Made by a program: the position numbers and the translations under genes. The notes under the pieces are model-generated. The model was not told the DNA's origin. It worked only from the letters and a program-made list of their open reading frames with translations, and ran no database searches. Shown in pieces: positions 738 to 63,513 of a DNA stretch of 64,000 nucleotides; position 1 is the stretch's first letter; each line of letters opens with the position of its first letter. This DNA comes from Campylobacterota bacterium (GTDB lineage: Bacteria > Campylobacterota > Campylobacteria > Campylobacterales > Thiovulaceae), in assembly GCA_030152305.1 (NCBI GenBank), contig JASKOM010000001.1, forward strand, positions 265,174 through 329,173. The letters run 5' to 3'.

Positions 738-1733
738 TTAAAATTCTGTAATTAATTTTGTTATAAAATAGCCACCTATTAAAAGCCAAATAAACATAAT
801 TCCAGCTGTGTATAACGGTGCAAAACCTACACCTTTGAATTTTTTAACTGTTGTTTCCATTCCGAGAGCCGTCATTGCCATTGTTAATAAAAATTGATCA
901 GCGATATTTATATATTCAACGATATCTTTTGGAATAATATTTAATGAATTAATTCCGCTCATAACGATAAACAAAACGGCAAACCATGGAATAACCAAAC
1001 TATTTTGTCCATTTGTTCCTTTTGATAAATTAGAAAGAATAATTCCTAAGATTATTAACATTGGAGCAATTAACATTACTCGAGTCATTTTTACGATAAT
1101 TGCACTGTTTGAAACATCTCCGCCGTAAGTTCCACCAACGGCAACAACTTGAGCAACTTCGTGAATTGTAGCACCGACATAAATACCGAATTGCGAATCA
1201 TTTAAATCTAAAATGCCAGTCGATTTAACGGCTGGATATAAAAACATTGCAATTGTTCCGAAAAATACAACAGTCGAAACAGCGATTGCACTTTTATAAG
1301 ATTCTGATTTTAAAACTGGTTCTGTTGCTAAAACAGCAGCAGCACCACAAACGGAACTTCCAGAAGCTGTTAGCATCGAAGTATCTCGATCTAATTTAAA
1401 AAATCTCATTCCGACATATGTTCCAATTGCGAAAGTTGAAATAACGATCAATATTGAAATAATTGCTCCGTCAAGACCAACATTATAAATTTCTCCAAAA
1501 GTAATTCTAAAACCGTAAAACACAATTGCAAATCTTAAAATTCGTTTTGCTGAAAATTTAATTCCATCTGTGAATCGATTGCCAAAATTATCGCCAATCG
1601 AATTAGCATAAATCATTCCAAGAACGATACCAACAACAAGAGGAGAAAAACCTAATTGCTTTACCTCATCGATATGAGAAATAAAAGTCGCAACTGTTGT
1701 TAAAACAAGAACAAGAATAACACCTTGGAGCAT
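738..1733 (-). CDS. YeiH/UPF0324-family integral membrane protein (putative exporter)
   Basis: 331-aa polytopic membrane ORF. The C-terminal ...TALGMETTVKKFKGVGFAPL... resembles the YeiH family. Confidence 0.6.
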   Translation of the reverse strand: MLQGVILVLVLTTVATFISHIDEVKQLGFSPLVVGIVLGMIYANSIGDNFGNRFTDGIKFSAKRILRFAIVFYGFRITFGEIYNVGLDGAIISILIVISTFAIGTYVGMRFFKLDRDTSMLTASGSSVCGAAAVLATEPVLKSESYKSAIAVSTVVFFGTIAMFLYPAVKSTGILDLNDSQFGIYVGATIHEVAQVVAVGGTYGGDVSNSAIIVKMTRVMLIAPMLIILGIILSNLSKGTNGQNSLVIPWFAVLFIVMSGINSLNIIPKDIVEYINIADQFLLTMAMTALGMETTVKKFKGVGFAPLYTAGIMFIWLLIGGYFITKLITEF

Positions 1734-1771
1734 AATAAAAAAATCCTAAAAAAATAATATGAGTTTTGATT

Positions 1772-2010
1772 AAAAAATGAAGAGTTTGACGGAAAAATAC
1801 CGTCAAATTTAGTTTAACTTTAGTAGCCGTCCCATTAGAAGTCTAGTTCGCATAGCAACACCAAACTCGACCATGAGAGAAACTTTAGGTAAAATCAACA
1901 GGGATTTCGCACACGGTTTCAACTACGAATAGTCTTACAAAACTTTGTTCGAACCGCAAAATATGGAGTATCGAACTACCAAGCCAAACTGAACGAAATT
2001 GTATCTAATT
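1772..2010 (-). ncRNA. candidate structured RNA or 5' leader ending in an intrinsic terminator (family not recognised)
   Basis: This 290-nt gap has no ORF. On the minus strand there is a TACAAT-like -10 near 2000, internal helices (GTTCGA...TCGAAC), and a terminator hairpin TTTGACGG-N7-CCGTCAAA (1785-1807) followed by CTCTTCATTTTTT. Confidence 0.25.
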
Positions 2011-2025
2011 TTATATATATTTTTT

Positions 2026-2972: not shown

Positions 2973-3003
2973 CGAAACAGCTATATATTTTCAAGCTGTT
3001 TCG
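2973..3003 (-). terminator. intrinsic terminator
   Basis: Hairpin CGAAACAGC-N13-GCTGTTTCG, followed on the minus strand by TTTATT. It abuts one copy of the GATGAGGT motif. Confidence 0.55.
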
Positions 3004-3017
3004 ATGAGGTTAGTTTA

Positions 3018-3572
3018 TTATTTATCGTCCATATTTTTACCAGCTTCTGATAATTTTTTTGTTAATTCAGATGCTTTTTTTGGATCCATTTTTGAAAAAA
3101 TTTGAGAAATAACTTTTGGATTCATATTTAATAAAATTTTCACACCTTCATCAGTATCTAATTCATTTAAAATCGTAGCCGATGATTTTGGTTTCATCTT
3201 AGAAAAAGAATTTGATAATTTATCCATTTTAACTTTTTCGATATCTTCCAATAGCTTTTTATTTTCAGCGATTAAACTTTCTATTTTTTTCTCTTTTGCT
3301 TCGATATCAGCTAATTTTTTATTAACTCCAGCTTCTTGTTCATTTAATTGTTCATTTTTTTTATTTAATAATTTTGTTGTTGCTTCTCGAAGAGCTTCAA
3401 GCGAATTTTCTTTGTCATTTAATCTTTGAATTTCAAGAGCTAATTCACCTTTTCGTTCCTCAAAAATTTTATTACAAATTACTAATTCATCTTTACCAAA
3501 AAGCAAAGAAAAACTAAAAAGAACAAGCGGAACTATTTTTATGGTCATTTTATTTCTAAACCAGAAAGCCAT
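3018..3572 (-). CDS. MotE/MgtE_N-like coiled-coil protein
   Basis: 184 aa with an N-terminal hydrophobic segment and a long coiled coil. The C-terminal [41 protein letters not shown] is an MgtE_N-type repeat. An alternative ATG at 3548 overlaps the argH stop as ATGA. Confidence 0.45.
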
Positions 3573-4939
3573 AGTTCAAAAAATTCAATCTGTTTAATAG
3601 TCTGTTCTTGAGATGTTCCACCAAATGATTTTCGACTATTCATCGAATTTTTAAGCGAAAGAACCTCATCGACATCTGAACCAATTCGATCATCAATTTC
3701 TTGAAGTTTTTTATAACCCATTTCACTAAGATCAATATTTAATTTATCAGCTTCAGCAACCGCTCGACCAGTAATATGATGAGCCTCTCTAAAAGGAACA
3801 TTGCAAATTTTGACAAGATAATCAGCTAAATCTGTTGCTGTCAAATGTCCAGTTTTACAAGCTTTTGCCATATTTTCTCGATTAACTTTCAAAGTTGCAA
3901 TTGCTTTTTCAAGAATTTTCAACGAAATAATCGCAGTTTCGACAGAATCAAAAACACCTTCTTTGTCTTCTTGCATGTCTTTATTATAAGCAAGTGGCAG
4001 ACCTTTCATAACTGTTAAAAGCGAAATCATATTTCCAAAAACTCGACCACTTTTGCCTCGCAATAATTCAGCAACATCTGGATTTTTCTTTTGAGGCATA
4101 ATTGAACTTCCTGTCGAATATGCATCGCTAAAAGTTACGAATTTAAATTCATAACTGCTCCAAATTATTAATTCTTCGGCAAATCTCGAAATATGAACAA
4201 ACAAAGTCGAAATATTAAAAAGAATTTCAAGAGCAAAATCTCGATCGCTGACTGTGTCAAGACAATTTATCGATGGCGATTTAAAATCTAAAAGCGAAGC
4301 TGTTATATTTCGATCGATTCGATGAGGTGTTCCAGCAAGTGCTGCACAACCAATTGGCGAAATATTATTTCGTTCGATAGAGCTTTCGAATCGTTCGATA
4401 TCTCGTTTAAACATCGAAACATAGGCAAGAATATGATAAGCAAAATTAATCGGTTGAGCATGTTGCAAATGTGTCATTCCTGGTAAAAGAGTATCGATAT
4501 TATTTTTTGCCATGTCAATTAAAGTCTGTTGAAGTTTAATTAATAAATTTATAATTTTTCGATTATTTCTAAGAACATATAATCTAAAATCTAAAGCTAC
4601 TTGATCGTTTCGGCTTCGTGCAGTATGTAATTTTTTTCCAGCATCGCCAATAATTTCAGTAATTCGACTTTCGATAGCCATATGAATATCTTCGTCAGAT
4701 ATTTTAAATTCGAATTCGCCGTTATCGATTTCTTGTTCAACTTGTTTTAAAGCAACGATAATTTTCTCGACATCATCAGCTGATAAAATTCCAACTTCTC
4801 GCAACATTGTCGCATGAGCAATTGAACCAGCGATATCTTCGCGATATAACTTTTTATCAAAAGGCAAAGAGCCATTAAATTCTTCAAGCAGAGAGGAACT
4901 AGCCTCTTCAAATCGTCCAGACCACATTTTTTTAGTCAT
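3545..4939 (-). CDS. argH: argininosuccinate lyase
   Basis: 464 aa with a full-length ArgH-like sequence and the fumarate-lyase signature [12 protein letters not shown]. Confidence 0.95.
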
Positions 4940-5190
4940 CGGATTCCTTTTAATTCTATTTTTTGTAATTGTAATATTTTTGAATTTTTATTAATCGAAA
5001 AATAATCTAGACCTCATCGTTTTGTTGTCAAACTTAACAAAAAACAACATGTAACATATTTATAAAATATATTTTTGTTAATTTTATTAATTTAGAACTC
5101 GATTTGACAAAACCGTTTTTTTTTTACAATTTGACAGCTCGTTTTTCGATGGGTGAAATAAATTTCTTTTAAAAAACAGGAGTTTGAAAA

Positions 5191-5427: not shown

Positions 5428-5832
5428 GTGAAAATGGCGGAAAATTTTGATGTTGAATATGTTGTGTCTAAAATTGACACAAAAGACAATTCAATGCTTT
5501 CATGTGAATGTTTAAATAAAGTGCCTACTGAATGGCTATTTTCAGATTCAAAACAAAAAACAATGTTGTATTACATTAAATTTGAGTATGATAAAAAAAC
5601 ATACTATAAAATAGGCATTACAGAGTCTTTACGAGAAAGATTTAGCAGTGAAGATAAGGATAAGTTCAAATTAATTGATGGCTTTAGTCTGAAAAATATT
5701 AAAGATCCAAAAGCAGTTGAATCTAAAATTAAAGAACTTTGCTTAAAAAATAAGGCTATTACTCACGATATTCTCAAATCTGGTAATACTGAAGTTTCAA
5801 AAACAGATTTCTTGGGTTGTTTTTCAAACTAA
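5428..5832 (+). CDS. T5orf172/MUG113-like (GIY-YIG superfamily) domain protein
   Basis: 134 aa. MLYYIKFEYDKKTYYKIGITESLRERF matches the Y-x-Y...YKIG-x-T core of T5orf172-type domains. Confidence 0.5.
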   Translation: MKMAENFDVEYVVSKIDTKDNSMLSCECLNKVPTEWLFSDSKQKTMLYYIKFEYDKKTYYKIGITESLRERFSSEDKDKFKLIDGFSLKNIKDPKAVESKIKELCLKNKAITHDILKSGNTEVSKTDFLGCFSN

Positions 5833-5845
5833 CTACTTTCTCAAA

Positions 5846-5887
5846 ACCTCATCGCAAAAATATAAAACTTTTCTTCATCGATGAGGT
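5846..5887 (+). terminator. intrinsic terminator formed by an inverted pair of the ACCTCATCG/CGATGAGGT motif
   Basis: AAACCTCATCG-N24-CGATGAGGTTT followed by TCCCTCTTTTT, immediately after the stop at 5832. Confidence 0.6.
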
Positions 5888-5910
5888 TTTCCCTCTTTTT
5901 AACAAACTAC

Positions 5911-5953
5911 AAAACTAAAACAAACATGAGTCCCGAAATAAATTCGGGATGAC
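5911..5953 (+). repeat. palindromic repeat element, copy E1 (AAAACTAAAACAAACATGAG + TCCCGAAATAAATTCGGGATGAC)
   Basis: Near-identical to 6998-7041. Core hairpin is CCCGAA-ATAAA-TTCGGG. Confidence 0.85.
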
Positions 5954-6125
5954 GAAAATCTTCTTTTTTTTTAAATTCCACAAACATATTTTTATTATTT
6001 TTTATTAACTTATTTAATTTTAATTTATTTGAAAATGAGGCATTGAGTTATAATTCGACAAGATCATTCCTCACGAACTTGCAAATGTGAGAAATGAAAA
6101 ATTCCAAAAAGAAAGCGGTGAAATT

Positions 6126-6998
6126 ATGGCATACAAATATGAATCTGTGCTGAAATCGTTCCAATACTCGACAGAGAGTTATCAAGTTATTTCTGATTTT
6201 TTATTATCAGGTGATAAAACAAATCCAAAAGTCATGTTAAAAGTAACAGAAATTTCTAAACATTTCAACAAACGACCTAATGATTGGTTTGCAAATCCTA
6301 CGGTTATAGACTTTATTAGAACTTTGATTTTAGTCAAATTAGAAAATAAAGATACAAAATTAATAAAAGCTTTTAAAAAATGGGCTAAGGAAGAAAAAGC
6401 AATTACCAGAAAATCTGGTAATTGGCAACACAGCGATTTTATCGATGTTATCAACAAGTTAGAACACAAAGCTATTATTGATTTTGCAAAGTCGATTGAA
6501 CTTATTATTGTCAAACGAGGTAATGCAGAATTAACAGGGGCTTCATCTGGAACTTGGATTAATCGAGACTTAGCTGTTAAATATGCTGAATGGCTTGATC
6601 CTAAGTTTTCAATTTGGGTTTCTCAAAAAATCTTAGAACTTGTTAATGACGGTGTTGCTTGGAATGAAATTCGAAATAAGACCAAAAAAGATTATTTGCC
6701 TCTCACAAGTGCAATTAAAAAATATGTTGTTCCAGCAAATACGAAAACAAAAGCGGATATTATTTACGGACAAATAGCAAACTTTATAAATTTGCGAGTT
6801 ACTCAACAAAAAGCAAAAGACATTCGCGAAGAACGACATATTCAAGCAAACGAATTAACTCGAGATTATTTCGAAAAACTTGAATTAGATCGAATTGCAA
6901 AACTTCAAATCTTCGCTGAAATGATCATTGCTCAATTAAATATAACTTATCTAATAAAATTATCAAATATGATCGCAAACTACAAATATCAAGACTAA
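6126..6998 (+). CDS. KilA-N domain DNA-binding protein with P63C-like C-terminal half
   Basis: SGTWINRDLAVKYAEWLDPKFSIWVSQKI is the KilA-N signature. The ORF track starts at 6087. The ATG at 6126 is preferred because of a purine-rich RBS. Confidence 0.7.
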   Translation: MAYKYESVLKSFQYSTESYQVISDFLLSGDKTNPKVMLKVTEISKHFNKRPNDWFANPTVIDFIRTLILVKLENKDTKLIKAFKKWAKEEKAITRKSGNWQHSDFIDVINKLEHKAIIDFAKSIELIIVKRGNAELTGASSGTWINRDLAVKYAEWLDPKFSIWVSQKILELVNDGVAWNEIRNKTKKDYLPLTSAIKKYVVPANTKTKADIIYGQIANFINLRVTQQKAKDIREERHIQANELTRDYFEKLELDRIAKLQIFAEMIIAQLNITYLIKLSNMIANYKYQD

Positions 6999-7041
6999 AA
7001 ACTAAAACAAACATGAGATCCCGAAATAAATTCGGGATGAC
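6998..7041 (+). repeat. palindromic repeat element, copy E2
   Basis: Direct repeat of 5911-5953. The two copies bracket the KilA-N gene. Confidence 0.85.
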
Positions 7042-9844: not shown

Positions 9845-10111
9845 TCAAACTCCGTTATTTTCTTGTTCTATTCGTATCTTGCCTAATTTACAAGTTGCTC
9901 CAACATGATTATGATCGTGTTTATGTCGTTCGTCAATAAAATCTAAATCGCTTTTTGCCTGTTTTAATATTCTTTTTTGTTGAACCAATGGCAAAATACA
10001 GCTATCTTTTTCTGGAAGTGAAAGAGAAGAATCACCAATAACTTTTTGAACTTCTTTTGTTATTTCAGCAATTGCTAAATCTATATATTCTTGAACTTTG
10101 TGCATTAGCAA
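9845..10111 (-). CDS. hypothetical protein with a His-rich segment (HKHDHNH)
   Basis: 88-aa ORF between hldE and the metal permease, overlapping the hldE stop by 7 nt. No recognisable family. Confidence 0.4.
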   Translation of the reverse strand: MLMHKVQEYIDLAIAEITKEVQKVIGDSSLSLPEKDSCILPLVQQKRILKQAKSDLDFIDERHKHDHNHVGATCKLGKIRIEQENNGV

Positions 10112-11544
10112 TTACACTCAATTTTTTTTATAATATTTGTCGTGCTTCGACCTTCAAGAAAATTTATTAATTCAACTTTTTTTACAAGATCAGAACCGAC
10201 GACTTCTTTATTTTTATAATCAGCACCTTTGACAAGAACATCAGGTTTAATAATTTTTATTAATTCATACGGTGTATCTTCTTCGAAAATCACGACATAA
10301 TCAACAGCTCTTAATCCCGATAAAATTATTGCTCGGTCATTTTCGTTATTAATTGGTCGTGTTTGACCTTTTAATTTTTTAACAGAACTATCAGAATTCA
10401 ATCCGACGATTAAAATATCTCCCAATTCTCGAGCTTTATTTAAATAAGAAACATGACCAGCATGTAAAATATCAAAACAGCCATTCGTGAAAATTACTTT
10501 TTTGCCACTATTTTTTAAATTTGAACTAATTTTTTCGACCTCATCGCGAGATAATATTCGTTTATCTGGATTTAACTTTTCACCATCTTCTAAATATAAA
10601 ATCTCATCGAATGAAGCCGTTGCAGTTCCAACTTTGCTAATTACAACCGCGGCGGCACTGTTGGCAAAATGAATCGCACTATGAAGATCTAACTTGCTAT
10701 TTAACGAAACAGCAATCGATGCCAAAACAGTATCACCAGCTCCTGTAACATCAAAAACTTCTTTGCCTTTTGTTGGAAAACTAGATAATTCTCCGTTTTT
10801 GTCAAATAATTTCATTCCGTCTTCTGACAAAGTAATTATCGATTTATCAAAATCAAATTTATTAATTAATTCAAAACCTAATTTATTTATATCGCTAATT
10901 TCACCGTTGAATGCTTCAATTGCCTCTTTTTTATTTGGTTTAATTAAAAAAGCTCCACGATATTTTTCGTAATTTTTACCTTTTGGATCAACAAGAACAG
11001 GAATATTGAATTTTTTAGCCAAATTAATTATTGATCTAGCTAAATAATAAGAAACTACACCTTTACCATAATCAGAAATAAGAATCGATTTATATTTATG
11101 AATATTCGATTTTAATATTTCGCAAATGTGATCAGCAACCTCATCGCTGATATCTTTTTTACTTTCAAGATCAAAACGAGAAATTTGTTGATGTCTTGCG
11201 ATAATTCGACTTTTTAAAGTTGTTGGTCTGTCATTCGAAACGATAATTCCAAATGAGCCAATATTCGAACGAGCGAGTTCATTTTTTAATAATTCGCCGT
11301 TTGAATCATTGCCAATTACACCGAATAAATCAACATTATGTTCAAAACTTTTGATATTAAAAGCTACATTTGCTGAACCACCTAAACGAAAAGTTTCCGA
11401 AGATAGTTCAACGATTTGAATTGGTGCTTCAGGTGATATTCGATTTGTTTCGCCGATGAGGTAGCGATCGATCATAATATCACCGATAACAGCTGTGTAA
11501 CTTTTTGTCGATGAATTTTTAATAGCTTCAATGATTTCTCTCAA
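10105..11544 (-). CDS. hldE: bifunctional D-beta-D-heptose 7-phosphate kinase / D-beta-D-heptose 1-phosphate adenylyltransferase
   Basis: 479 aa. N-terminal ribokinase-like domain (DVTGAGDT) plus C-terminal cytidylyltransferase-like domain (FTNGCFDILHAGHVSYL). TTG start. Confidence 0.92.
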   Translation of the reverse strand: MREIIEAIKNSSTKSYTAVIGDIMIDRYLIGETNRISPEAPIQIVELSSETFRLGGSANVAFNIKSFEHNVDLFGVIGNDSNGELLKNELARSNIGSFGIIVSNDRPTTLKSRIIARHQQISRFDLESKKDISDEVADHICEILKSNIHKYKSILISDYGKGVVSYYLARSIINLAKKFNIPVLVDPKGKNYEKYRGAFLIKPNKKEAIEAFNGEISDINKLGFELINKFDFDKSIITLSEDGMKLFDKNGELSSFPTKGKEVFDVTGAGDTVLASIAVSLNSKLDLHSAIHFANSAAAVVISKVGTATASFDEILYLEDGEKLNPDKRILSRDEVEKISSNLKNSGKKVIFTNGCFDILHAGHVSYLNKARELGDILIVGLNSDSSVKKLKGQTRPINNENDRAIILSGLRAVDYVVIFEEDTPYELIKIIKPDVLVKGADYKNKEVVGSDLVKKVELINFLEGRSTTNIIKKIECNC

Positions 11545-12276
11545 TCTTTATTCCTTTCATGTTCTAATAAATCAGAATAAAGAGTAAATCTACCTCGACC
11601 ATTTTTCTTAGAATGATACATAGCGATATCAGAACTTTTTAATAATTCAGAAATATTATTGCCATCATGCTGATAAATAAAATGTTAAACTCATATCAAG
11701 AACGATTTTATTGGCAAATTCACGAACGATAGATAATTCGTTAATATTTGGCAAAATAACAACAAATTCATCACCACCAAGTCTTGAAACAAAATTATTG
11801 TCGCCAATAATATTTTTTATTCGACCAACAGCTCCGATAAGAATTTCGTCTCCAGCATCGTGTCCCATAGTGTCATTAATATGTTTAAATTTATCAAGAT
11901 CAATAAACATAATGGCAAATTTATTACCATTGTCTCGACTTGCTTTAATAATTTCGGGAAACATTTCGTTGAACATTCCACGATTTGGAATCTTTGTTAA
12001 AGGATCAAGTTTTGCATCTAATAATTCTCTAACTTTTTCATTAACTTTTTCTTCAAGTTTCATTCGATATTCGTCAAGTTCAGCATAAGAATCTTGAAGT
12101 TGTTTATGCAAAGTTATAAGCTGTTTATGTTGTGAATCACTTTGTTTAAGAACTTTTTCTAATCGTCTTTGAGTTCGATCATATTCTTTTTCAAGTTTAT
12201 CTACCTCTTTTTGCAAAAGAGCAATTACATTATTAGAAAATTCTTTAAGAGAATCTTGAAAACTACCTAAACTCAA
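11541..12276 (-). pseudogene. GGDEF diguanylate cyclase (SiaD-like), frameshifted near the 3' end
   Basis: The ORF at 11665-12276 has a coiled coil plus a GGDEF domain (RLGGDEFVVIL) and stops at ...LTFYLSA*. The missing domain end (IYQHDGNNISELLKSSDIAMYHSKKNGRGRFTLY...) continues in another frame down to the TGA at 11541-11543. Deleting 1 nt from the T-run at about 11672-11687 restores it. Confidence 0.7.
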
Positions 12277-12278
12277 AG

Positions 12279-12662
12279 TTAATCTTTCGTGATCATTGCA
12301 ATATTTAAATTACGATATTCAGCGACAAAATCTTCACCAGCTTCTTCAGCACTGCTATTATCAGGACTATAAATCCATCGAACTTCGATTATATGACCAT
12401 CTTCAGAAGAATCAGACAAAATATCAAAAAGTTGAAAAAACAGTTGAGAACTACTTGAATTAAAATAATTAATTTCCATTTCAACGATAGTTTTTAATTC
12501 TGATTCTTCTTGAAAAAATTTCTTTAACCAGTTTAAAACATTTTTATAAAAATCAAAAGTATTTTCAGGAAAAGAGTTACCTCGAACTGAAAAAATTCTT
12601 GTTGTTACATTAAAAGATATTTCTGGTGTATATTCAGTAGCTCTAATTTCTAAGTTTTCCAT
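12279..12662 (-). CDS. SiaC-like DUF1987 regulatory protein
   Basis: 127 aa. Starts MENLEIRATEYTPEISFN...; FPENTFDFYKNVLNWLKKF and NYFNSSSSQLFFQLFDIL are typical of DUF1987. Confidence 0.7.
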   Translation of the reverse strand: MENLEIRATEYTPEISFNVTTRIFSVRGNSFPENTFDFYKNVLNWLKKFFQEESELKTIVEMEINYFNSSSSQLFFQLFDILSDSSEDGHIIEVRWIYSPDNSSAEEAGEDFVAEYRNLNIAMITKD

Positions 12663-12680
12663 TTTTTAACTCCTATTGTT

Positions 12681-13232: not shown

Positions 13233-13259
13233 ATAAAAATTATCCTTTTAATTTTATTT

Positions 13260-19272: not shown

Positions 19273-19337
19273 TTAACACCTTTCACAATTTTTCGTAATT
19301 TTAATATTTTTGGCTTTTCGATTGTCATCCCAAACCA

Positions 19338-19404: not shown

Positions 19405-19414
19405 GAAAAGTTTA

Positions 19415-42745: not shown

Positions 42746-42754
42746 TAAATTTAT

Positions 42755-44941: not shown

Positions 44942-45070
44942 GATTTAATTTTTTTGATGAGGTTCGTTTATATAATAAATAATTAACAAAGATATTTATC
45001 TCGTTTATATTTCATTAACAATCATCTTGTAGAATGTCATGAAATTTAAAAATACAAATAAGGATAAATT

Positions 45071-46084: not shown

Positions 46085-46120
46085 TATTTTAAAAATTATA
46101 TAAAATAATCAACATTCAAA

Positions 46121-46156
46121 ACCTCATCAACATTAACAAAATCAAAGCGATGAGGT
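46121..46156. terminator. bidirectional terminator from an inverted ACCTCATC/GATGAGGT pair
   Basis: AAAACCTCATC-N20-GATGAGGTTTATTT between the convergent DUF2202 gene (+) and purL (-). Confidence 0.55.
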
Positions 46157-46171
46157 TTATTTATTTAATTA

Positions 46172-53281: not shown

Positions 53282-53814
53282 TGTTTGGCAAAAACTTCGC
53301 CATTTTTTTAGCTTCTAGCCTATTTTTATTAATGGGCTGTGGCTATAAACCTTCTTCATATTACACTGAAGAAGTGTTAGGCTCAAAAATATATGCTTCT
53401 GTTTTAACATCAATTGAAGAACCTGAAACATCAATTTTAATTGAAGATGCATTAAAAGATGCTCTTCGAGTTAGATTAAATGTCTCGTTTTCTAATAAAA
53501 ATGATGCCGATTCTTTTTTGCAATTGTCTATTAAACGATTGGAATTCAAACCTTTACAAACTGATGGCGGTTATACAGTTTTATATCGAAGTGAATTAAT
53601 TTTAAAAGCCCAATTTACTTTTATAAAAAACGGTGTCAAAGAAATTATAAATTATGATCTTGAAGGTTTTTATGAATTTCCTGTTCGCTCAAATGCTTCG
53701 TTATCAGTTGCTTTAAAATTAGAAGCTGTAAAAATTTCAGCTTTAAAAGCTCTTGATACTTTGATTCCAAAATTAGCTCTTCGTGGAAGTATGGAAGTTG
53801 ATAATAAAAAGTGA
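53281..53814 (+). CDS. lipoprotein, possibly LptE-like
   Basis: 177 aa with lipobox LLMGCGYKPS. The size and the CGY start resemble LptE. The call is weak. Confidence 0.35.
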   Translation: MFGKNFAIFLASSLFLLMGCGYKPSSYYTEEVLGSKIYASVLTSIEEPETSILIEDALKDALRVRLNVSFSNKNDADSFLQLSIKRLEFKPLQTDGGYTVLYRSELILKAQFTFIKNGVKEIINYDLEGFYEFPVRSNASLSVALKLEAVKISALKALDTLIPKLALRGSMEVDNKK

Positions 53815-54314
53815 AAACTAATTATCAAAAAAGAATTTCTGAACTCGAAGAAAGAGTTTCGGCTCTCGAGAATATTATCAACGAATTAAAAAATCAAAAT
53901 TCTCAAATACCTCATCAACAACAAACAATTATAAATAAAATAAAATATTTTGTTGAATTTGGAGAAATTTATATCGAATTAAGAAATCAAATTCAAATAG
54001 AAGATTTATTTAATTTCGATGAGGCAATTAACAGAATCGATAATTTAAATAAAATAAAATATGGCAATTTAAATAATTGGCGGTTGCCTTTTCGAGATGA
54101 ATTGCAAAAAATAATGAACTTATTAATTATCGAACAAGATAATAATTTAATAAAAGAGTTCGTTTTGCCAAATAAATTTCAACCAATTTTTTGGTCTTCA
54201 ACTGAAGAACAAGATTCGCCAAAAGTTTGGATTGCAAATTTTAAACATGGTTTTGGCAATTTTGCATATAAACGACATAATTATTATTCGTTCGCTGTGG
54301 CTAATAAATTATAA
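53811..54314 (+). CDS. DUF1566 (Lcl-C-like) domain protein
   Basis: 167 aa with an N-terminal coiled coil. NNWRLPFRDELQKIMNL...IFWSSTEEQDSPKVWIANF. Confidence 0.6.
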   Translation: MKTNYQKRISELEERVSALENIINELKNQNSQIPHQQQTIINKIKYFVEFGEIYIELRNQIQIEDLFNFDEAINRIDNLNKIKYGNLNNWRLPFRDELQKIMNLLIIEQDNNLIKEFVLPNKFQPIFWSSTEEQDSPKVWIANFKHGFGNFAYKRHNYYSFAVANKL

Positions 54315-54340: not shown

Positions 54341-54979
54341 TTGTTAGAAGTTAATAACTTAAAATTATCTTTCGGTGAAAGAGAAGTTTTAAAAGGTATT
54401 TCGTTTGAAATTAGACTTGGTCAAATTGTTGGACTTTTTGGCAAAACATCTTCAGGAAAAAGTCAAATCTTTGAAACTGTTTTAAATTTGAAAAATTTCA
54501 CAGCTGGAACAGTTATTTATGAAAATAAAAAAGTTGCTTATAACATTAATGAACATATCGTTAATTTACGACAACAAATAGGCTATGTTCCACAATATAA
54601 AAATTTTCTTGATTTTGGCAATTTGTTTGAAAATCTAACATTTATCAGCAATAAAAAATCTGATCAAATTATTTATATTGCTTCTCTTTTGGAATTTACA
54701 GATTCGTTATATAAAAATATCGATGAGGTCGAAAGTGAAGATTTATTTCGAGCAAAAATTGGTCTCGCTCTTTTAAAATCACCAAAAATTATTTTAATTG
54801 ATGAACCTCTCGCATATTTAAATGAAGACAGAATCGAAACTGTTTTGAAATTTATCGAGAAAATATTTCGAGATAAAAAAATTGGTGTTTTAATCTCTTC
54901 GCAAAGTGAAAATTTATCAAAATTAGAAATATTTGATAAAAAATTATTTTTAAATAATGGAGTTATTAATGAACTTTAG
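54341..54979 (+). CDS. ABC transporter ATP-binding protein, divergent (FtsE-like size)
   Basis: 212 aa. Walker A is GKTSSGKS, Walker B is ILIDEP. TTG start after GGAGG. Confidence 0.55.
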   Translation: MLEVNNLKLSFGEREVLKGISFEIRLGQIVGLFGKTSSGKSQIFETVLNLKNFTAGTVIYENKKVAYNINEHIVNLRQQIGYVPQYKNFLDFGNLFENLTFISNKKSDQIIYIASLLEFTDSLYKNIDEVESEDLFRAKIGLALLKSPKIILIDEPLAYLNEDRIETVLKFIEKIFRDKKIGVLISSQSENLSKLEIFDKKLFLNNGVINEL

Positions 54980-56972: not shown

Positions 56973-58424
56973 ATGATTAGCTGGATGCAAGAAAATAGAA
57001 AATATCTAGTCGTTACACTGTGGATTAGTGCCTTTGCTTTTATTGGTGCTGGTTTTGTCGGCTGGGGCAGTTATCAATATGGTAGCAAAGCAACCTCAAT
57101 AGCAAAAGTCGGTTCCGTTGATATTAAATTGTCAGAACTTCAAATGGCTTATAGTAATTTATATGCTTATTATAATCAAATGTTTGGTGGCAAACTTGAT
57201 CAAGAAATCGCAAAAGAATTAAAACTTGAAGAAAGTGCTTTTAATATTTTAAAACGAGAAGCTCTTTTGTTAAATTTAGCCGAAGAATTTGGCTTAAAAG
57301 TTTTAGACCAAGAAATCGCTGATAATATAATTAAAAACGAAAGTTTTTTTAACAATGGCAAATTTGACAGAAATCAATATGAATTAATTTTAAAAAATAA
57401 TCGAATATCTCTTAAAGATTATGAACATAGATTAGCAAAATCTATTTTGATTTCTAAGATTCGAGAACTTTTTCCTGCTACTCCAACAAATTTCGAAAAA
57501 GAATTATTTAGTTCTGTTTTAACTTTAAAAGACAAAATCGAATATAAAATATTATCAATCGAAGATATTAATGTATCTATTTCTGATAATGAAATTTCTG
57601 CTTTTTGGGAACTTAATAAAAATAAATTTTTAACTGAACAAGAATTTAAAATTAGTTTTATTGAAACTAATATTGCTGATCGAAATTACAGCGATGCGGA
57701 ACAACAAGAATTTTATAATACAAATGGTTTAAAATATGAGTCATCTTTTGAAGATTCTAGAAATGACATTCTTAAAGATATGCGAGAACGAGATTCAAAA
57801 CGAGATGCTATGCGAGATTATTTATCATTTAAAAAAGGTGAATATAATGGCTCAATTCAACAATCTCAAATTTTATCTTTAAATAATTTAGTTTTATCTA
57901 CTGTTGATGAAGATTTATCCGAATTAAAAATTGCTAAAATAAATGATATTTTTAAACCTCAAATTTCTAAAGATCGAAGTGCTTTCTTAACTATTCGAAT
58001 TGATGAAATTATTCAACCTCGAGAAAAAACTTTTGATGAGGTCAAAAATGATATCGAAATTGAATTAAAAGCTCAAAAAAGTAAAGAAGCAATTTTAAAT
58101 ATGGCAAAAGAAACTTATACTAATTTTTCAGGTAAACAAACTGAATTTTTATCAGTAGCTGATGGTAGTAAAATCGAAGGACTTTTTCCTCAAGATGGTT
58201 CTGAATTTTTATCTTCTATTTTCACAACTGGAACAAATAAAGGCTTTATTCCATTAGGTTCAAAAGTTGTTTTATATAAAATTATTGAACAAATGATTGA
58301 TAACAATCAACAAGAACAAGATTTATCAACTCAAATATTAGAAGTTAAAGAAAGAGTTTTTGAAGATAATTTAATTAAAAAATTAGAATATTACTATCCA
58401 GTTCAAACATACTTTAAAGGATAA
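56973..58424 (+). CDS. PpiD/SurA-N-like periplasmic chaperone
   Basis: 483 aa. The N-terminal anchor MISWMQENRKYLVVTLWISAFAFIGAGFVGWG is typical of PpiD-like proteins. It lies directly upstream of ftsA, as in Campylobacter. Confidence 0.6.
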   Translation: MISWMQENRKYLVVTLWISAFAFIGAGFVGWGSYQYGSKATSIAKVGSVDIKLSELQMAYSNLYAYYNQMFGGKLDQEIAKELKLEESAFNILKREALLLNLAEEFGLKVLDQEIADNIIKNESFFNNGKFDRNQYELILKNNRISLKDYEHRLAKSILISKIRELFPATPTNFEKELFSSVLTLKDKIEYKILSIEDINVSISDNEISAFWELNKNKFLTEQEFKISFIETNIADRNYSDAEQQEFYNTNGLKYESSFEDSRNDILKDMRERDSKRDAMRDYLSFKKGEYNGSIQQSQILSLNNLVLSTVDEDLSELKIAKINDIFKPQISKDRSAFLTIRIDEIIQPREKTFDEVKNDIEIELKAQKSKEAILNMAKETYTNFSGKQTEFLSVADGSKIEGLFPQDGSEFLSSIFTTGTNKGFIPLGSKVVLYKIIEQMIDNNQQEQDLSTQILEVKERVFEDNLIKKLEYYYPVQTYFKG

Positions 58425-58428: not shown

Positions 58429-60000
58429 TTGGAAAACAACGGCAGATATATTTTAGCTCTTGATGTAGGTTCTACGAAAATATGTGCAATCATTGCTGAA
58501 ATTAGAGGTATTAACGATGTTCGAATCATCGGAGCTGGTGTCGAAAAATCTCAAGGATTAAAACGAGGATCAATTACAAATATTGATCTTGCTTCAAAAT
58601 CTATTAAAAGTGCTGTCGAAGATGCAAGACGAGTCGCTGGAGGCACAGAAAGTGAAGTTATTGTTTCTATTTCTGGTGCCTATGTTAAAAGTGTTGATAG
58701 TAGCGGTATTATAAATGTTCCAAGTGGTGAAGTTGGCATCGGTGAAATCAATCGAGTCATGCAAACTGCTAGATATAATGCAAATATACCTTCTGATTAT
58801 GACATATTACATATATTGCCTTATAATTTTAAAGTTGATGAACAAGATTTCGTTGAAGATCCTCTTGGCATGAATGCTTCTCGTCTTGAAGTTTTTACTC
58901 ATTTAATTATCACAACAAAATCTAATTTTAATAATTTAAAAAGATCTGTTGAATTAGCAGGTCTAAAAGTTGTTAATATTGTCTTAAATAGTTATGCATC
59001 GTATATTGCAACTGTTAATAATGACGAAAAAAGCCTCGGAATAGGTATTATTGACATGGGTGGGAATACAAGTAGTTTTGTTATTCATGCTGGTGGAAAT
59101 GCTGTTCGTTATCAAGGTTTCATAGGTGTCGGATCTAATCATATTACAAATGATCTTTCTATGGCTCTTCATACTCCTGTTACGATCGCTGAAAATGTCA
59201 AAATTACTTATGGAAATTTAACTTATCTTAGCGATGACCTCATCGAATTACCAGTTATTGGTGATGAAAATACAACACATGAAGTTTCTCTTGATATTGT
59301 TGGTCAAGTTATCCGTGCAAGAGTTTCTGAAACTCTTGAATTAGTTTCTAAACAAATCGATGATAGCGGTTTAAAAAGAGAAGTTGGCGGAGGTTTTGTT
59401 TTAACAGGTGGTTTGACAAAATTGGAAGGTATTCGAGAACTTGCAATGAGTATATTAAATGCACCAGTTCGATTAGCTAAACCTAAACCAATTAGTGGTT
59501 TATTCGAATCTTTAAGAGATCCAGCTTTTTCGACATCTATCGGTTTAATTATGCACACAACTGGAAGTTATGCTCTTTATGAAATCGATTCTAACGGAAT
59601 CATGCGATATAATCAGGGTTTGGTTGGACAAACAAAACAACCAATTCTTGATAATATAAATATGAATAATAATAATTATTCATCAACGACTCCGCAAATG
59701 CAAAATACTAAACCTGATACAACAAGAAGTCAGTTTGGTAATTCAAATCAACAATATAATAACAGTAGTTTTGGTAATAATTATAATCAAGCTCCTGCTC
59801 AAACAATTGGAGCAATGAGTCAAACATCTCAACAAGATAAAACATTGCAAAATACTGTTGTTAAAACTCAACCCATAGAATCTGAATTAAAATCTTCTCA
59901 ATATTATAATAGAAGCAATGAATTACAAATTAATCAGGGTCCTAATAATCAAAATAGTGGTTTAAACAAGGCTTGGCAGTGGATTACTCAATTATTCTAA
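58429..60000 (+). CDS. ftsA: cell division protein FtsA with a long Q/N-rich C-terminal linker
   Basis: Actin-fold motifs (ILALDVGSTKICA, IGIIDMGGNTSSF), about 115 aa of N/Q/S-rich low complexity, then the amphipathic tail LNKAWQWITQLF. TTG start. Confidence 0.92.
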   Translation: MENNGRYILALDVGSTKICAIIAEIRGINDVRIIGAGVEKSQGLKRGSITNIDLASKSIKSAVEDARRVAGGTESEVIVSISGAYVKSVDSSGIINVPSGEVGIGEINRVMQTARYNANIPSDYDILHILPYNFKVDEQDFVEDPLGMNASRLEVFTHLIITTKSNFNNLKRSVELAGLKVVNIVLNSYASYIATVNNDEKSLGIGIIDMGGNTSSFVIHAGGNAVRYQGFIGVGSNHITNDLSMALHTPVTIAENVKITYGNLTYLSDDLIELPVIGDENTTHEVSLDIVGQVIRARVSETLELVSKQIDDSGLKREVGGGFVLTGGLTKLEGIRELAMSILNAPVRLAKPKPISGLFESLRDPAFSTSIGLIMHTTGSYALYEIDSNGIMRYNQGLVGQTKQPILDNINMNNNNYSSTTPQMQNTKPDTTRSQFGNSNQQYNNSSFGNNYNQAPAQTIGAMSQTSQQDKTLQNTVVKTQPIESELKSSQYYNRSNELQINQGPNNQNSGLNKAWQWITQLF

Positions 60001-60059: not shown

Positions 60060-61724
60060 ATGAAAATGGGATATAGTATAGAAGAAGTTCTTCAAGAAGA
60101 ACTTAGCGGTGCAAAAATAAAAGTTATTGGTGTCGGTGGTGGCGGTGGCAATATGGTTAATCACATGATTAAAACTGGTGTTCAAGGCATTGAAATGATT
60201 GTTGCTAATACTGATGCTCAAGTATTAGAAAAATCTCTCTGTGAAAATCGAATTCAGTTAGGCACTAAATTAACTAAAGGTCTTGGTGCTGGAATGGTTC
60301 CTGAAATTGGTCGCGAATCGGCTATGGAAAATGCAGATGAAATAAAAAAACAGTTAGACGGTGCTGATATCGTATTTATTGCAGCTGGATTAGGTGGTGG
60401 CACAGGCACAGGTGCTTCTCCTGTTATTGCTCAAATTGCTCGTGAATTAGGTGCTTTAACTATTTCTGTTGTTACAAAACCTTTTTCTTTTGAAGGTGGC
60501 AAACGAGAACGATTAGCTAGACAAGGTTTAGAAGAACTTAAAAAAGAAAGTGATTCTATTGTTGTTATTCCGAATGATAAATTATTAGCTATCGTTGATA
60601 GAAATCTAGGTTTAAAAGAAAGTTTTAAAATAGTTGATGAGGTTCTTGCAAGAGCTGTAACAGGAACAAGTGGAATTATTTTATCAAGTGGTGATAACGA
60701 TATTAATCTTGACTTTGCAGATTTGCGAACAGTCATGAGTCATAAAGGCTTAGCTCTTATGGGTATGGGTGAAGCAGAAGGCGAAAAATCAGCTTACGAA
60801 GCTATAAAAAATGCCATTGAATCACCATTATTAGATGATGTTTCTATCAAAGGAGCTATGGGAGTTCTTGTTCATTTTAATTTACATCCAAATTATCCAT
60901 TAATTGAAATTACTAATGCAATGGAAGTTGTTAGAGATAATGCTGATGCCGATGCTTCGGTTATTATGGGAACAACTACAGATTCGTCATTACCAGAAAC
61001 ATTTGTAAAAATTACTTTAATTGCAACTGGTTTTGAAAGACAAGAAGATGGACATAAAAAAGGAATTACAGCAAAAGAAAGTGATGGAACTAATTTGAAT
61101 GTTTATCAAAGAAGAACAGCACAAGCACCACAAAGTAATAATCAAGCTCAATCATCGCAGTCTGTTAATAATAATTCATCAAAATATAATTCAGCAACAT
61201 CGTCATCATCACAAATGAGTCAGCAACAAGTAAAAACAGTTGAACAACCTCAACATGTTATGAATAGAATGCAACAGCCTCAATCATTTCAAAATGATTA
61301 TCAAGCACAAGTTAGCGAACCTCAATATCAACCTCAAATACAACCACAACCACAACCACAACCACAACCACAAACAATAGTTACACCGCAAACAACACAA
61401 CGAATTCAACCGTCTCAATCAATACCATCAATTCAAAGCGAGTATCAACCTCCTGTTCAAACAGCAACACCACAGTTTAATTATCAACAAACGGGCTCTA
61501 GTTCGATTCAGCAACAACAACAAAGAAATAATTTTGGTGGAGGAGGAAATGTTGGTCAAAAATATTCACAACCTCCGAGACCAAATGCAACTCCAACAGC
61601 TGGAACAAACGGTAATTTTGAAAGTGGTCCAAAAAGAACACCAAATGTAAAACATCAATCTGGAACGATTAGTGATGAATATCTTGATGTTCCTACTTGG
61701 TTAAGACAAAGAGGAAATAAATAA
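60060..61724 (+). CDS. ftsZ: cell division protein FtsZ with a ~200-aa Q/P-rich linker
   Basis: [13 protein letters not shown] and [15 protein letters not shown] tubulin motifs, a long Q/P/S-rich linker that includes the (CAACCA)5 repeat at 61341-61370, and the conserved C-terminal peptide [13 protein letters not shown]. Confidence 0.95.
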
Positions 61725-61726
61725 CT

Positions 61727-62374
61727 CTATCTCATAGAGAAAAATCTCTCTCCATTTATAGTTATCGAGCCATCATTATTTAATATGGCTTGTGAGAGAG
61801 AAATTTTTTCTGAACTATTATTTATATTAAAAAATAAATTTCTTGATTTCTCAAATTCTAATTTATACTCTTCAAATAATTCAATCCAACTTAATTTTTC
61901 ATGTAATTTATTTAAAATAGCTTGAATAATATTTTTATTATTTTTGTTATCGCAATTTACATAACCGAAATCTTCAGTTTTATAAATATTAATTCCAATA
62001 CCGATTATTGCAAAACTACCAATTACATTCGTAATAATTCCACCAAATTTTATATCTTGATTATATAAATCGTTTGGCCATTTAAGCCAGATATTTTCAT
62101 TGCTACATTTTTTTAAAACTTGCAACGAAACTAAAGCAAAATATACCGAAAGTGATTGAAGAGGTAAATCTTTTGGTAATTCATTAATTTTAATTGCAAC
62201 CGAAAAAAAAATATTATTTCGAGTGTTCAACCAATTATTGCCTCGACTTCCTATTCCAGAAGTTTGGGAATCTGTATAAACAGCTAAATTATTTATTAAT
62301 TTTTTTTCACGAATTAAATTTAATAAATATAACTGTGTAGATTCTAATTCATTAAAATATATTAATTCGAGAAT
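61727..62374 (-). CDS. birA: biotin--[acetyl-CoA-carboxylase] ligase, start codon uncertain
   Basis: KWPNDLYNQDIKFGGIITN lies in the ORF-track model (start TTG 62230). The conserved upstream part (ELESTQLYLLN..., DSQTSGIGSRGNNW) is in the same open frame with no ATG/GTG/TTG. A possible ATT start lies at 62372-62374. Confidence 0.7.
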   Translation of the reverse strand: MLELIYFNELESTQLYLLNLIREKKLINNLAVYTDSQTSGIGSRGNNWLNTRNNIFFSVAIKINELPKDLPLQSLSVYFALVSLQVLKKCSNENIWLKWPNDLYNQDIKFGGIITNVIGSFAIIGIGINIYKTEDFGYVNCDNKNNKNIIQAILNKLHEKLSWIELFEEYKLEFEKSRNLFFNINNSSEKISLSQAILNNDGSITINGERFFSMR

Positions 62375-63513
62375 TTGTAACCCTTTGGAATAAGCATATA
62401 AAATTCGCCATCTCGTTTTGTTTTACCAGCTAATTCACCAGCTTCTTTTCCAAAACCAAAAAATAAATCAGCTCGAATAACTCCTTTGATTGCACCACCG
62501 CGATCTTGAGCCATAAATAAATGATTTAATATTTTATCTTTTGGTTGATCTGGTGATTTTATAAAAATAGGCATACCCAAAGGAATATATTTTGTATCAA
62601 CGGCAATTGTGCTTTTTGGAACTAGATTTGTTGCCATAGCACCAAAAGCCCGACCACTTGGCTGTTCGCTAAAAAATACAAAACTTTTATTAGAATGCAA
62701 TACCTCATCAGCTTCATTAGGATGATCTTTAACCCATTTGCTAATAAATTCAGCTGATAATTTATAAATAGGTATTCCATAATGTTTATTTATATATCCA
62801 CCGACAGAAGTATAATCGTAACCATTTTTAGCAGAAAAGCCAACACCAATAATTGAGCCATCGTCAAGACGAACAGAACCTGAACCCTGAACTTGCAAAA
62901 AGAGTCGTTCAACTCGATCTTCAACCCAGCAAATTACTTTAGCAGGAGGCGGATCTTTATCAATTTCTTCATGAGTTTTATAAGGCAATTTGAAATCTTT
63001 TGGTTTTTCATATAATGGATATTGAAATTGTTCAGTTTTTTTTCGACTGCCATTTAACAATGGAACATAATAACCTGTAACAGTTCCTGTCCATCTTAAA
63101 TTTTTATTATCAGCTATAAAATATGGAACAAAATTTTCTTCAAAAAATTGTGTAATTTGTTCGTTATTTGGATCAATACCCCAAAGTTCTCGACCTTTAT
63201 CACAAATCGAAGGAATATTAACAGATCGAGGTTTTTCGCAACCTCGTAAAAATGCTTCGAAACTGCCAAGTTTTTTGTCGTTTTGCCAACCGCGAATTTC
63301 GACATAATCAGTAGATATTAATTCCATATCTCCAATAGTTATAATATTTCTTGATTGAAAGTTTGGCAAAAATTTTTTTATTTGAAGTCTAAACTGTTCT
63401 TTACTAGAAGTCAATTGTTCTTCAGGTTCATTATCAAATCTACTACTACAACCAGAAATATAAAATATCGTAGAAACAGATAAAAATAGTTTAGTTATTA
63501 GAATTTTTTTCAT
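62362..63513 (-). CDS. mltA: membrane-bound lytic murein transglycosylase A
   Basis: 383 aa with lipobox ISGCSS. MltA and 3D-domain sequence: AQDRGGAIKGVIRADLFFGFGKEAGELAG. Confidence 0.8.
   Translation of the reverse strand: MKKILITKLFLSVSTIFYISGCSSRFDNEPEEQLTSSKEQFRLQIKKFLPNFQSRNIITIGDMELISTDYVEIRGWQNDKKLGSFEAFLRGCEKPRSVNIPSICDKGRELWGIDPNNEQITQFFEENFVPYFIADNKNLRWTGTVTGYYVPLLNGSRKKTEQFQYPLYEKPKDFKLPYKTHEEIDKDPPPAKVICWVEDRVERLFLQVQGSGSVRLDDGSIIGVGFSAKNGYDYTSVGGYINKHYGIPIYKLSAEFISKWVKDHPNEADEVLHSNKSFVFFSEQPSGRAFGAMATNLVPKSTIAVDTKYIPLGMPIFIKSPDQPKDKILNHLFMAQDRGGAIKGVIRADLFFGFGKEAGELAGKTKRDGEFYMLIPKGYKFSN

Follow-up and report, generated by a model that had tools for sequence, protein, structure and literature searches.

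What maintains 42 copies of one eight-letter word in 64 kb of bacterial DNA? The question is raised by a 64,000-nucleotide stretch of a Campylobacterota genome (assembly GCA_030152305.1, contig JASKOM010000001.1, positions 265,174 to 329,173 of the forward strand; hereinafter the window, with positions counted from its first letter), in which the word GATGAGGT, mostly preceded by a pyrimidine (YGATGAGGT), recurs on both strands. The initial annotation of this DNA had read the word as a candidate uptake sequence comparable to the DNA uptake sequence (DUS) of Neisseriaceae and the uptake signal sequence (USS) of Pasteurellaceae. As a candidate that reading is supported here, three of the four observations by which it might fall having turned out in its favor, and we propose that YGATGAGGT is probably a genus-wide DNA uptake signal of Thiovulum, similar in kind to DUS and USS. 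Sequence-specific DNA uptake has for about thirty years been known from two bacterial families only. A 2025 survey limits uptake sequences to Pasteurellaceae and Neisseriaceae, and the literature searched yielded no link of Thiovulum or of the Epsilonproteobacteria/Campylobacterota to an uptake sequence; a literature search with the raw 8-mer returned primer matches only.

An over-represented, free-standing word

An exact search of the window recovers GATGAGGT 42 times, 22 on the forward and 20 on the reverse strand, precisely as counted earlier; 37 of the positions first given were exact, while five were off by 1 or 10 bases (1664, 10548, 11148, 32921 and 34430 are corrected to starts at 1663, 10538, 11138, 32911 and 34429, respectively). 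In 100 dinucleotide-preserving shuffles of the window 0.68 copies are expected, the largest number seen being four, which amounts to an excess of about 60-fold; Markov backgrounds of order 2–3 predict 0.6–1.6 copies, the rough earlier estimate being about one. By z-score the word is the top over-represented 8-mer of the window. Its copies are spaced nearly at random (coefficient of variation 0.97) with a mean of 1.49 kb. This density, one per 1.5 kb, comes close to those of Neisseria and H. influenzae, where uptake words occur about once per 1.1–1.25 kb as reported by Smith et al. (1995/1999) and Frye et al. (2013).

The word is not palindromic, its reverse complement being ACCTCATC. The base immediately 5′ of it is C in 26 copies and T in 13, as first tallied, with G in two and A in one making up the remainder, and the base 3′ of it is rarely G. 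Apart from the pyrimidine at position −1, the relative entropy of the flanks is approximately zero both in the window and in a five-species pool (see below). Thus, YGATGAGGT is a free-standing 9-mer that lies outside any longer repeat, and the absence of conserved flanks disposes of the concern that it might be confined to a single repeat family.

Coding copies and maintenance at the DNA level

On a gene map made of simple calls based on open reading frames (ORFs), 29 copies (69%) are genic and 13 are non-coding, the latter comprising 11 intergenic copies and two that straddle a predicted start codon, which together match the 13 previously counted as intergenic. Non-coding DNA makes up at most 9% of the window and yet holds 31% of the copies (13/42; P = 5e-5), a 3.5-fold enrichment between genes. 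Inside genes the word is read in four frames over both strands, and the readings first reported for it (DEV, PHR, LIG and TSS) are borne out. Every one of the 16 sense copies is read GAT-GAG-GTN, i.e., Asp-Glu-Val; of the other sense frames, one holds TGA and one would give Met-Arg via an AGG codon, and neither is used. The 13 antisense copies are read as Thr-Ser-Ser (five), x-Leu-Ile (three) and Pro-His (five). Conversely, genes of 100 codons or more contain 15 Asp-Glu-Val tripeptides, and each of these is encoded GATGAGGTN, as against the 9.6% predicted from codon usage (P about 5e-16), GAG being only 11% of Glu codons; the tripeptide itself is 3.8-fold above the expectation from amino-acid composition. 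Sense and antisense copies are about equally common (16 versus 13, P = 0.71), and for most of them a message-level function is thereby excluded. The word is shown here to be maintained at the level of DNA and not at that of peptide or RNA.

These observations bear on the proposal that the copies are remnants or targets of mobile elements, such as a miniature inverted-repeat transposable element (MITE), a repetitive extragenic palindrome (REP) with its RAYT transposase or an insertion-sequence target, or else reflect a favored Asp-Glu-Val peptide. The high copy number and the status of DEV as the commonest reading (16/29 coding copies) could be cited for it. Nevertheless, the flanks show zero similarity and 69% of the copies lie in ordinary housekeeping genes; moreover, there are four readings, two strands and intergenic copies to be accounted for, each DEV uses the rare GAG, and an outgroup DEV at the matching position of leucyl-tRNA synthetase (LeuRS) is encoded GATGAAGT. 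A REP, MITE or other interspersed repeat is ruled out since only 9 bp are conserved and most copies are genic, the explanation by peptide or codon bias is rejected on its codons and its several readings on both strands, and we assign the proposal as a whole next to no probability.

Inverted pairs at gene ends

The three closest pairs of copies (28–34 bp apart) are all convergent, in the arrangement ACCTCATC...GATGAGGT, and directly follow gene ends, two of the three being situated between convergent genes; simulation gives P = 0.0014 for three such pairs arising by chance. They fold into stems of 10–12 bp with U-rich tails (−12 to −22 kcal/mol, z −5.6 to −6.8), while single intergenic copies show no fold. 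The pair at 5843–5890 (copies 5846–5853 on the reverse and 5880–5887 on the forward strand) lies 14 bp past the stop of the gene 5428–5832 and has a 12-bp stem, AAAACCUCAUCG/CGAUGAGGUUUU, with a U-rich tail (−13.9 kcal/mol, z −6.2). The pair at 37909–37951 (37912–37919 reverse, 37941–37948 forward) lies between the convergent groEL (end 37865) and a Rha gene (end 37957); with its 11-bp stem and U-rich tails on both strands (−16.5 kcal/mol on the forward and −22.1 on the reverse strand, z −6.8) it is a candidate bidirectional terminator, and it is identical in the Logan contig L001. The third pair, at 46118–46159 (46121–46128 reverse, 46149–46156 forward), has a 10–11-bp stem with U-rich tails (−12.2 and −20.1 kcal/mol, z −5.6 and −6.0) and separates the convergent genes 45071–46084 (+) and purL, 46172–48400 (−). 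The loci of T. stygium and T. imperiosus contain similar inverted pairs as well, and a terminator function for the pairs is plausible.

One could regard the word as an RNA or translation element, i.e., a terminator stem module or an internal Shine–Dalgarno-like GAGGU site of pausing or initiation, the other copies being incidental. The three U-tailed hairpins at gene ends would suit such an element, and GAGGT matches five of the six bases of the GGAGGT Shine–Dalgarno core, with two copies overlapping predicted starts. However, the hairpins hold only 6 of the 42 copies, the single intergenic copies do not fold, and 13 coding copies are antisense to the mRNA, so that the transcription-strand specificity expected of an RNA element is contradicted by the even split between sense and antisense. 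This explanation is largely refuted and we deem it very unlikely.

Distribution across the Thiovulum clade

With one genome compared per species, the LeuRS of the window (32200–34632) is 80% identical to that of Candidatus Thiovulum stygium (complete genome CP091137.1), 73% to that of Ca. T. karukerense, 72% to that of Campylobacterales UWMA-0117, which Bizic et al. (PMC9938260) count among the Thiovulum genomes, and 69% to that of Ca. T. imperiosus, as compared to 60–66% for Arcobacteraceae, Helicobacter and other Campylobacterota. Thus, the window, with a G+C content of about 30%, comes from a Thiovulum-like member of the Campylobacterota.

The word is abundant in the LeuRS-anchored loci of all four of these relatives, with 18 copies in 22.4 kb of T. 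stygium, 17 in 20.2 kb of T. imperiosus, 11 in 8.7 kb of UWMA-0117 and 6 in 12.5 kb of T. karukerense, i.e., about 0.48–1.27 per kb at a G+C content of 29–38%. In each Thiovulum locus GATGAGGT ranks first to fifth among the 8-mers, and the five-species pool (128 kb, made up of the window and these four loci) contains 94 copies against 1.7 expected. The corresponding figure for 76 outgroup loci, drawn from Arcobacteraceae, Helicobacter and other Campylobacterota, is 51 copies in 1.38 Mb or 0.037 per kb. The frequency of the word elsewhere in the genus is therefore not near expectation, which had been raised as a possible objection to the uptake reading, and its occurrence in five independent assemblies rules out an assembly artefact. 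The relative preference for C and T at −1 varies between the Thiovulum species in a manner reminiscent of the ‘dialects’ of Neisseria.

Outside the clade, a metagenome scan for the hairpin form AACCTCATC N8–30 GATGAGGTT yielded at least 120 loci, and none among the matches listed had a Thiovulum-like density; these are accordingly chance hairpins in unrelated organisms. In viral contigs the same pattern occurs at 78 loci, including two low-G+C contigs with 4–5 copies that are dissimilar to the window and to the Thiovulum loci. The T. stygium locus (L002; CP091137.1, 743846–766293) is also rich in the 8-mers GCAATGGG (34 occurrences), CCAGAAGC (26) and TCAACAGC (29), which presumably come from a long tandem-repeat gene.

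Synteny across the loci retrieved is limited to leuS and its MFS neighbor, and we therefore followed the fate of individual copies in LeuRS, using an alignment of five Thiovulum genomes and five outgroups. The word appears at nine alignment positions, five of them species-specific, three shared by two or three species and one by four, and its copies fall in variable columns. The outgroup residues at most of these positions are unlike DEV, being Lys-Tyr-Leu, Ser-Lys-Asp or Glu-Glu-Lys, and where one outgroup (L007) has Asp-Glu-Val at a shared position it is encoded GATGAAGT. Three copies of the window lie in leuS: that at 32911–32918 (−) is antisense (TSS), with the T. stygium copy displaced by two codons; that at 33010–33017 (+) is sense (DEV), is found also in loci L003 and L004 and not in L002 or L078, and faces K/Q/R/T-Y-L/I in the outgroups; and that at 34429–34436 (+), again sense (DEV), is the one common to four Thiovulum species, at the site of the L007 tripeptide. 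The replacement of unlike residues by species-specific copies indicates that the word arose repeatedly at tolerant positions, altering the protein as it did so, and Findlay and Redfield 2009 (PMC2817400) described the same effect on proteins for USS and DUS.

Orientation and other DNA-level readings

The two strands carry nearly balanced numbers of copies in each of the five loci (22/20, 10/8, 4/2, 7/4 and 10/7), none of which displays the strand skew with replication that had been foreseen as a sign of a Chi-like site, and the two orientations are mixed along the entire window (P = 0.001 under a Chi-like 75% skew). Chi sites and the FtsK-orienting KOPS are likewise over-represented exact 5–8-mers read by a DNA-processing machine, but they are strongly skewed to the leading strand. 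The intermixed orientations remove Chi-like and KOPS-like readings at the scale of these loci, as distinct from whole replichores, and a Chi/KOPS assignment is rejected for the window and the four other loci.

A wider version of this idea would make the word the recognition site of some other orientation-independent DNA transaction, either a self-marker for nuclease, recombination or defense systems (as Chi marks self for RecBCD, and as NTS serves the single-stranded DNA nuclease SsnA) or the site of a lineage-specific nucleoid protein. The exactness of the word fits such all-or-none recognition by an enzyme: one-mismatch variants number 70 against 52.5 expected in the five-species pool, an excess of 1.3-fold that sits mainly in G-to-A/T changes at positions 6–7. 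One-mismatch USS variants are enriched several-fold in H. influenzae, and with its variants barely enriched the Thiovulum word is unusually sharp, sharper than USS. It is further depleted in phage-like cassettes, as a self-marker would be, and the window is shared by NTS-like hairpin repeats (see below for both) of the kind cut by the Neisseria Ssn nucleases (PMC11893778), implying that the lineage has repeat-reading DNA systems. Set against this are the strong strand skew of Chi and KOPS, the different habits of parS and matS, which number few per genome and occur neither at variable protein positions nor paired at gene ends, and the lack in the window of a candidate reader protein tied to the motif. 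We consider a recognition site of this type unlikely, if worth bearing in mind.

Methylation offers another route to a hyper-abundant word. A methylation-linked or mismatch-repair bias, of the type proposed for HIP1 of cyanobacteria or for Vsr/Dcm in E. coli, might produce the word as a by-product, with repair restoring or creating it, and the methylated word could possibly be the uptake or restriction mark, as in C. jejuni. Known repair-driven biases are well under 2-fold, and the excess of about 60-fold is beyond them. Further, the word is not palindromic, as HIP1 is, and to keep it identical across five species whose LeuRS are 69–80% identical would need a conserved enzyme. Points that lend this route some appeal are the richness of Campylobacterota in methyltransferases, with methylated RAATTY as the uptake mark of C. 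jejuni (PMC10046745), the comparable abundance of HIP1 and its methylation-dependent effect on transformation (bioRxiv 10.1101/2024.09.10.611283), and the presence in the window of an N6/N4 methylase with an Mrr-like nuclease (43223–44941). On balance, we hold such a bias to be quite unlikely.

Phage-type regulator genes and a second repeat

The long motif-free gaps of the window coincide with ten paralogous phage-type regulator genes (one KilA-N, four Rha, four AntA and one Bro-N) located at 6087–6998, 19060–22906, 30006–32116 and 37957–42682. These contain a single copy in 8.3 kb, namely that at 19488–19495 (+), antisense (TSS) in the Rha-family gene 19415–20167, as compared to 41 copies in the 55.7 kb elsewhere (P = 0.02, with the grouping made post hoc). 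Known uptake sequences are scarce in mobile DNA too (PMC7371117). No viral relatives of the AntA-family protein were found. A small ORF with a Cro/C1-like helix-turn-helix (HTH) domain stands before each of the Rha and Bro-N genes, four regulator modules are arranged in tandem at 37957–42682, and the regulator genes are flanked or separated by NTS-like hairpins in a layout resembling gene cassettes. Additionally, a terminator consensus scan detects two identical terminator-like hairpins, TATGCCCAATTCTCGGCATG + TTTTTTT, at 41330–41356 and 42593–42619 (+), which lie inside the duplicated HTH/Rha modules and are thus part of the duplicated unit.

The NTS-like hairpins constitute a second repeat, of which 13 copies (at most one mismatch) are present against 0.5 expected in the window; its short form is GTCAT-CCCGAA-tttat-TTCGGGATCT and its long form GTCATCCYGAAGCGAWAGCTCCTGTAAYTYGTTTCGGGATCT. 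It occurs at 5932–5953, 7020–7041, 19324–19365, 20551–20592, 21760–21800, 29724–29765, 30923–30970, 40292–40333, 41464–41490 and 42721–42748, and a search of the 81 LeuRS-anchored loci, those of the four other Thiovulum species included, turned up no copy of it. In its layout, GTCAT followed by a hairpin, the repeat is similar to the NTS/SRM of Neisseria, where NTS is the target of SsnA, a nuclease that modulates transformation (PMC11893778); it hints at a second, Neisseria-like control layer. The ORF 5428–5832 (+), of 134 amino acids, gives a weak Pfam match to T5orf172 (GIY-YIG-related; E = 9e-4) and no match in NCBIfam or PDB sequence searches. Downstream of it come the GATGAGGT hairpin and then the NTS-like repeat at 5932, and its product may be an Ssn-like nuclease.

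Competence machinery and a proposed mechanism

Competence genes, for which the initial annotation advised looking, are annotated in related Thiovulum genomes. The annotation tables (PMC9938260) list ctsD (PilQ/GspD secretin), ctsE, ctsW/comFC, comEA, comEC and dprA along with PilA/GspG/MshA-like pseudopilins, and the Movile Cave Thiovulum genome has two COG1555 genes, one of them annotated as comEA. According to the same study, type IV pilus genes are present in all six Thiovulum genomes, and many of the surface filaments are proposed to be such pili. The same parts make up the transformation system of Campylobacter jejuni (PMC10046745).

We posit that motif-bearing DNA would be bound preferentially by a component of the Cts/pseudopilus apparatus, the best candidate for the reader being a pseudopilin, possibly acting together with ComEA. 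Bound fragments would be drawn through the CtsD secretin and then, as single strands, through ComEC, to be recombined via DprA/RecA. If word-bearing fragments are taken up and recombined more often than word-free ones, new copies would spread and lost ones would be replaced (molecular drive), a process that might continue up to about one copy per 1.5 kb wherever the sequence tolerates the word. Such places would be intergenic stretches, the variable segments of proteins, where it mostly reads Asp-Glu-Val, and the 3′ ends of genes, where inverted pairs would be reused as hairpins. Both the biasing of uptake by the word and the identity of the protein reading it are what we infer from this combination of observations. 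Hallmarks of an uptake signal are present in the DNA itself: the word recurs once per 1.5 kb, is evenly split between the strands and is maintained at the DNA level; it is in excess between genes, with inverted pairs where genes end; and it is restricted to a clade, with flank dialects, turnover at tolerant positions and scarcity in phage-like DNA. A natural-transformation apparatus of the host is present by annotation in the related genomes. We lean, by a little over even chances, towards a third and independently evolved uptake-signal system that is read by a Cts/type IV pilus-like apparatus.

Several points weigh against an uptake signal. Cyanobacterial HIP1 illustrates that a hyper-abundant word need not be one, and the meager excess of one-mismatch variants departs from the pattern of USS. 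The parity of strands comes from five loci of 9–64 kb rather than whole replichores, no competence or pilin gene lies within the 64 kb of the window, the proposed receptor is a candidate pseudopilin, and Thiovulum is uncultured. The sole specificity mechanism known in the phylum is a different one, namely RAATTY methylation in C. jejuni (PMC10046745). Finally, the inverted pairs had first been described as three terminator hairpins; hairpins with U-rich tails they are, but their loops of 12–24 nucleotides are longer than those of canonical intrinsic terminators, and a terminator consensus scan of 37000–47000 did not call either of the two pairs that it covered (37912/37941 and 46121/46149), on account of its loop limit of 8 nucleotides.

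Comparison with known systems and implications

The DUS of Neisseriaceae (GCCGTCTGAA and its dialects, with the minor pilin ComP as receptor) is likewise a short, exact and non-palindromic word found about once per 1–1.5 kb. It shares with the Thiovulum word equal representation on the strands, genic and intergenic copies with an intergenic excess, inverted-pair hairpins at gene ends, conservation across a clade with flank dialects, scarcity in mobile DNA and a type IV pilus-like uptake apparatus. In contrast, the two sequences are unrelated, the core measures 8–9 bp rather than 10–12, and the phylum is Campylobacterota; the Thiovulum machinery is annotated as Cts/type II secretion system-like instead of classical Pil, and the role of the word in uptake is predicted. 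Moreover, hairpins account for 6 of 42 copies of the Thiovulum word, whereas about half of the DUS lie in predicted terminators (bioRxiv 10.1101/2025.10.24.684340).

With the USS of Pasteurellaceae (AAGTGCGGT/ACAAGCGGT; predicted receptor ComN) the word has in common a 9-bp core, a similar density, a majority of coding copies, a placement at tolerant positions and the use of frames that avoid stops, its own sense frame 2 being barred by TGA. The USS has also shaped the proteome (PMC2817400), for which the over-representation of DEV in the Thiovulum window provides a counterpart. It differs in that the Thiovulum word lacks AT-rich flanking segments, having the −1 pyrimidine only, in the 1.3-fold excess of one-off variants, and in belonging to another phylum. 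The methylation-dependent discrimination of DNA in C. jejuni (CtsM, RAATTY) concerns the same phylum and the same type of annotated uptake genes (ctsD, ctsE, ctsW, comEC and dprA), and a preference for self-DNA would be the common outcome; however, what marks DNA there is methylation of a 6-mer that is common without being over-represented, as opposed to an over-represented 8–9-mer. HIP1 (GCGATCGC) is likewise a hyper-abundant 8-mer conserved in a clade and present in genes and spacers, and it has been reported to affect transformation efficiency (bioRxiv 10.1101/2024.09.10.611283). Yet it is palindromic and overlaps methylation sites, while the word of Thiovulum lacks such symmetry and occurs in inverted pairs where genes end.

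If the uptake reading holds, the word would extend uptake signals beyond Neisseriaceae and Pasteurellaceae for the first time, and it would be the first of them in Campylobacterota. Thiovulum, a veil-forming giant among the sulfur bacteria and uncultured, would then be naturally transformable and prefer DNA of its own kind, a prediction of natural transformation in an ecologically important sulfur oxidizer, and at least some of the pilus-like filaments that Bizic et al. (PMC9938260) propose to coat the cells densely would serve in DNA uptake. The word would also direct attention to the Cts-type machinery, which Campylobacter has too, as the place of a new DNA-reading receptor, and would show that uptake signals have evolved repeatedly, providing an independent test of molecular-drive and selection models of their origin. 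As a compact marker the word could help to bin Thiovulum contigs and to flag foreign DNA within them, and it would be an obvious addition to DNA intended for transforming Thiovulum.

Remaining copies and other features of the window

Besides the copies already located, sense copies read as DEV lie on the reverse strand in the gene of a PF03601 membrane protein (1663–1670; gene 738–1733), the argininosuccinate lyase gene (3663–3670; 3545–4939), twice in a PfkB kinase/cytidylyltransferase gene (10538–10545 and 11138–11145; 10105–11544), and in genes for a class IV aminotransferase (15862–15869; 15666–16592), a sulfatase-family protein (17767–17774; 17145–18908), a small HTH ORF (42657–42664; 42410–42682), purL (47970–47977), which encodes FGAM synthase, and an mltA-like gene (62702–62709; 62362–63513). 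Those on the forward strand are found in an ORF at 24999–25934 (25464–25471), an MFS transporter gene (35512–35519; 34639–35850), an ABC ATPase gene (54722–54729; 54341–54979), a SurA-like chaperone gene (58035–58042; 56973–58424) and ftsZ (60636–60643; 60060–61724).

Antisense copies on the forward strand are those in the argininosuccinate lyase gene (4321–4328, (T)PHR), the PfkB kinase/cytidylyltransferase gene (11455–11462, YLI(G)), an SPFH/Band-7 gene at 14588–15661 (14598–14605, TSS), a bacterial globin gene at 16594–17037 (16977–16984, (A)PH(P)), the sulfatase-family gene (17381–17388, (E)PH(Q)) and purL (47553–47560, TSS). Their reverse-strand equivalents lie in ORFs at 24109–24717 (24222–24229, (E)PH(R)) and 25971–27071 (26016–26023, TSS), in the MFS transporter gene (35363–35370, YLI), in an ORF with an Lcl_C domain at 53811–54314 (53909–53916, (I)PH(Q)) and in ftsA at 58429–60000 (59237–59244, DLI). 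At two gene boundaries the ATG of the motif is the predicted start, i.e., at 23923–23930 (+) for the ORF 23924–24163 and at 28744–28751 (+) for the ORF 28745–29701.

Among the intergenic copies, that at 3003–3010 (+) is 8 bp past the 3′ end of the gene 3018–3572 (−), that at 5011–5018 (−) has divergent genes on either side, and that at 32153–32160 (−) has leuS 40 bp downstream. Two others bracket a putative type II restriction-modification pair at 43223–44941 (+), in which an N6/N4 DNA methylase (PF01555) is followed by an Mrr_cat-like endonuclease (44171–44941): the upstream copy, at 43120–43127 (+), forms a weak hairpin with a degenerate partner, GATAGAGG, and the downstream one, at 44956–44963 (+), lies 15 bp past the endonuclease gene.

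The window also contains a SiaABCD-like signaling cluster at 11665–14575 (−), made up of a GGDEF cyclase (11665–12276), a SiaC-family phosphoprotein (12279–12662), a DUF6272 protein (12681–13232) and a SpoIIE/PP2C phosphatase (13301–14575). A run of secreted or coiled-coil proteins without a Pfam match (ORFs of 204–541 amino acids) occupies 23306–29701 (+) and 53281–54314 (+); no prepilin motif was found in the ORFs of these two regions, several of which have signal-peptide-like N-termini, and two further proteins possess an Lcl_C (DUF1566) domain. Lastly, a PglB/STT3-type oligosaccharyltransferase encoded at 51101–53281 (+) indicates N-linked protein glycosylation as in Campylobacter.

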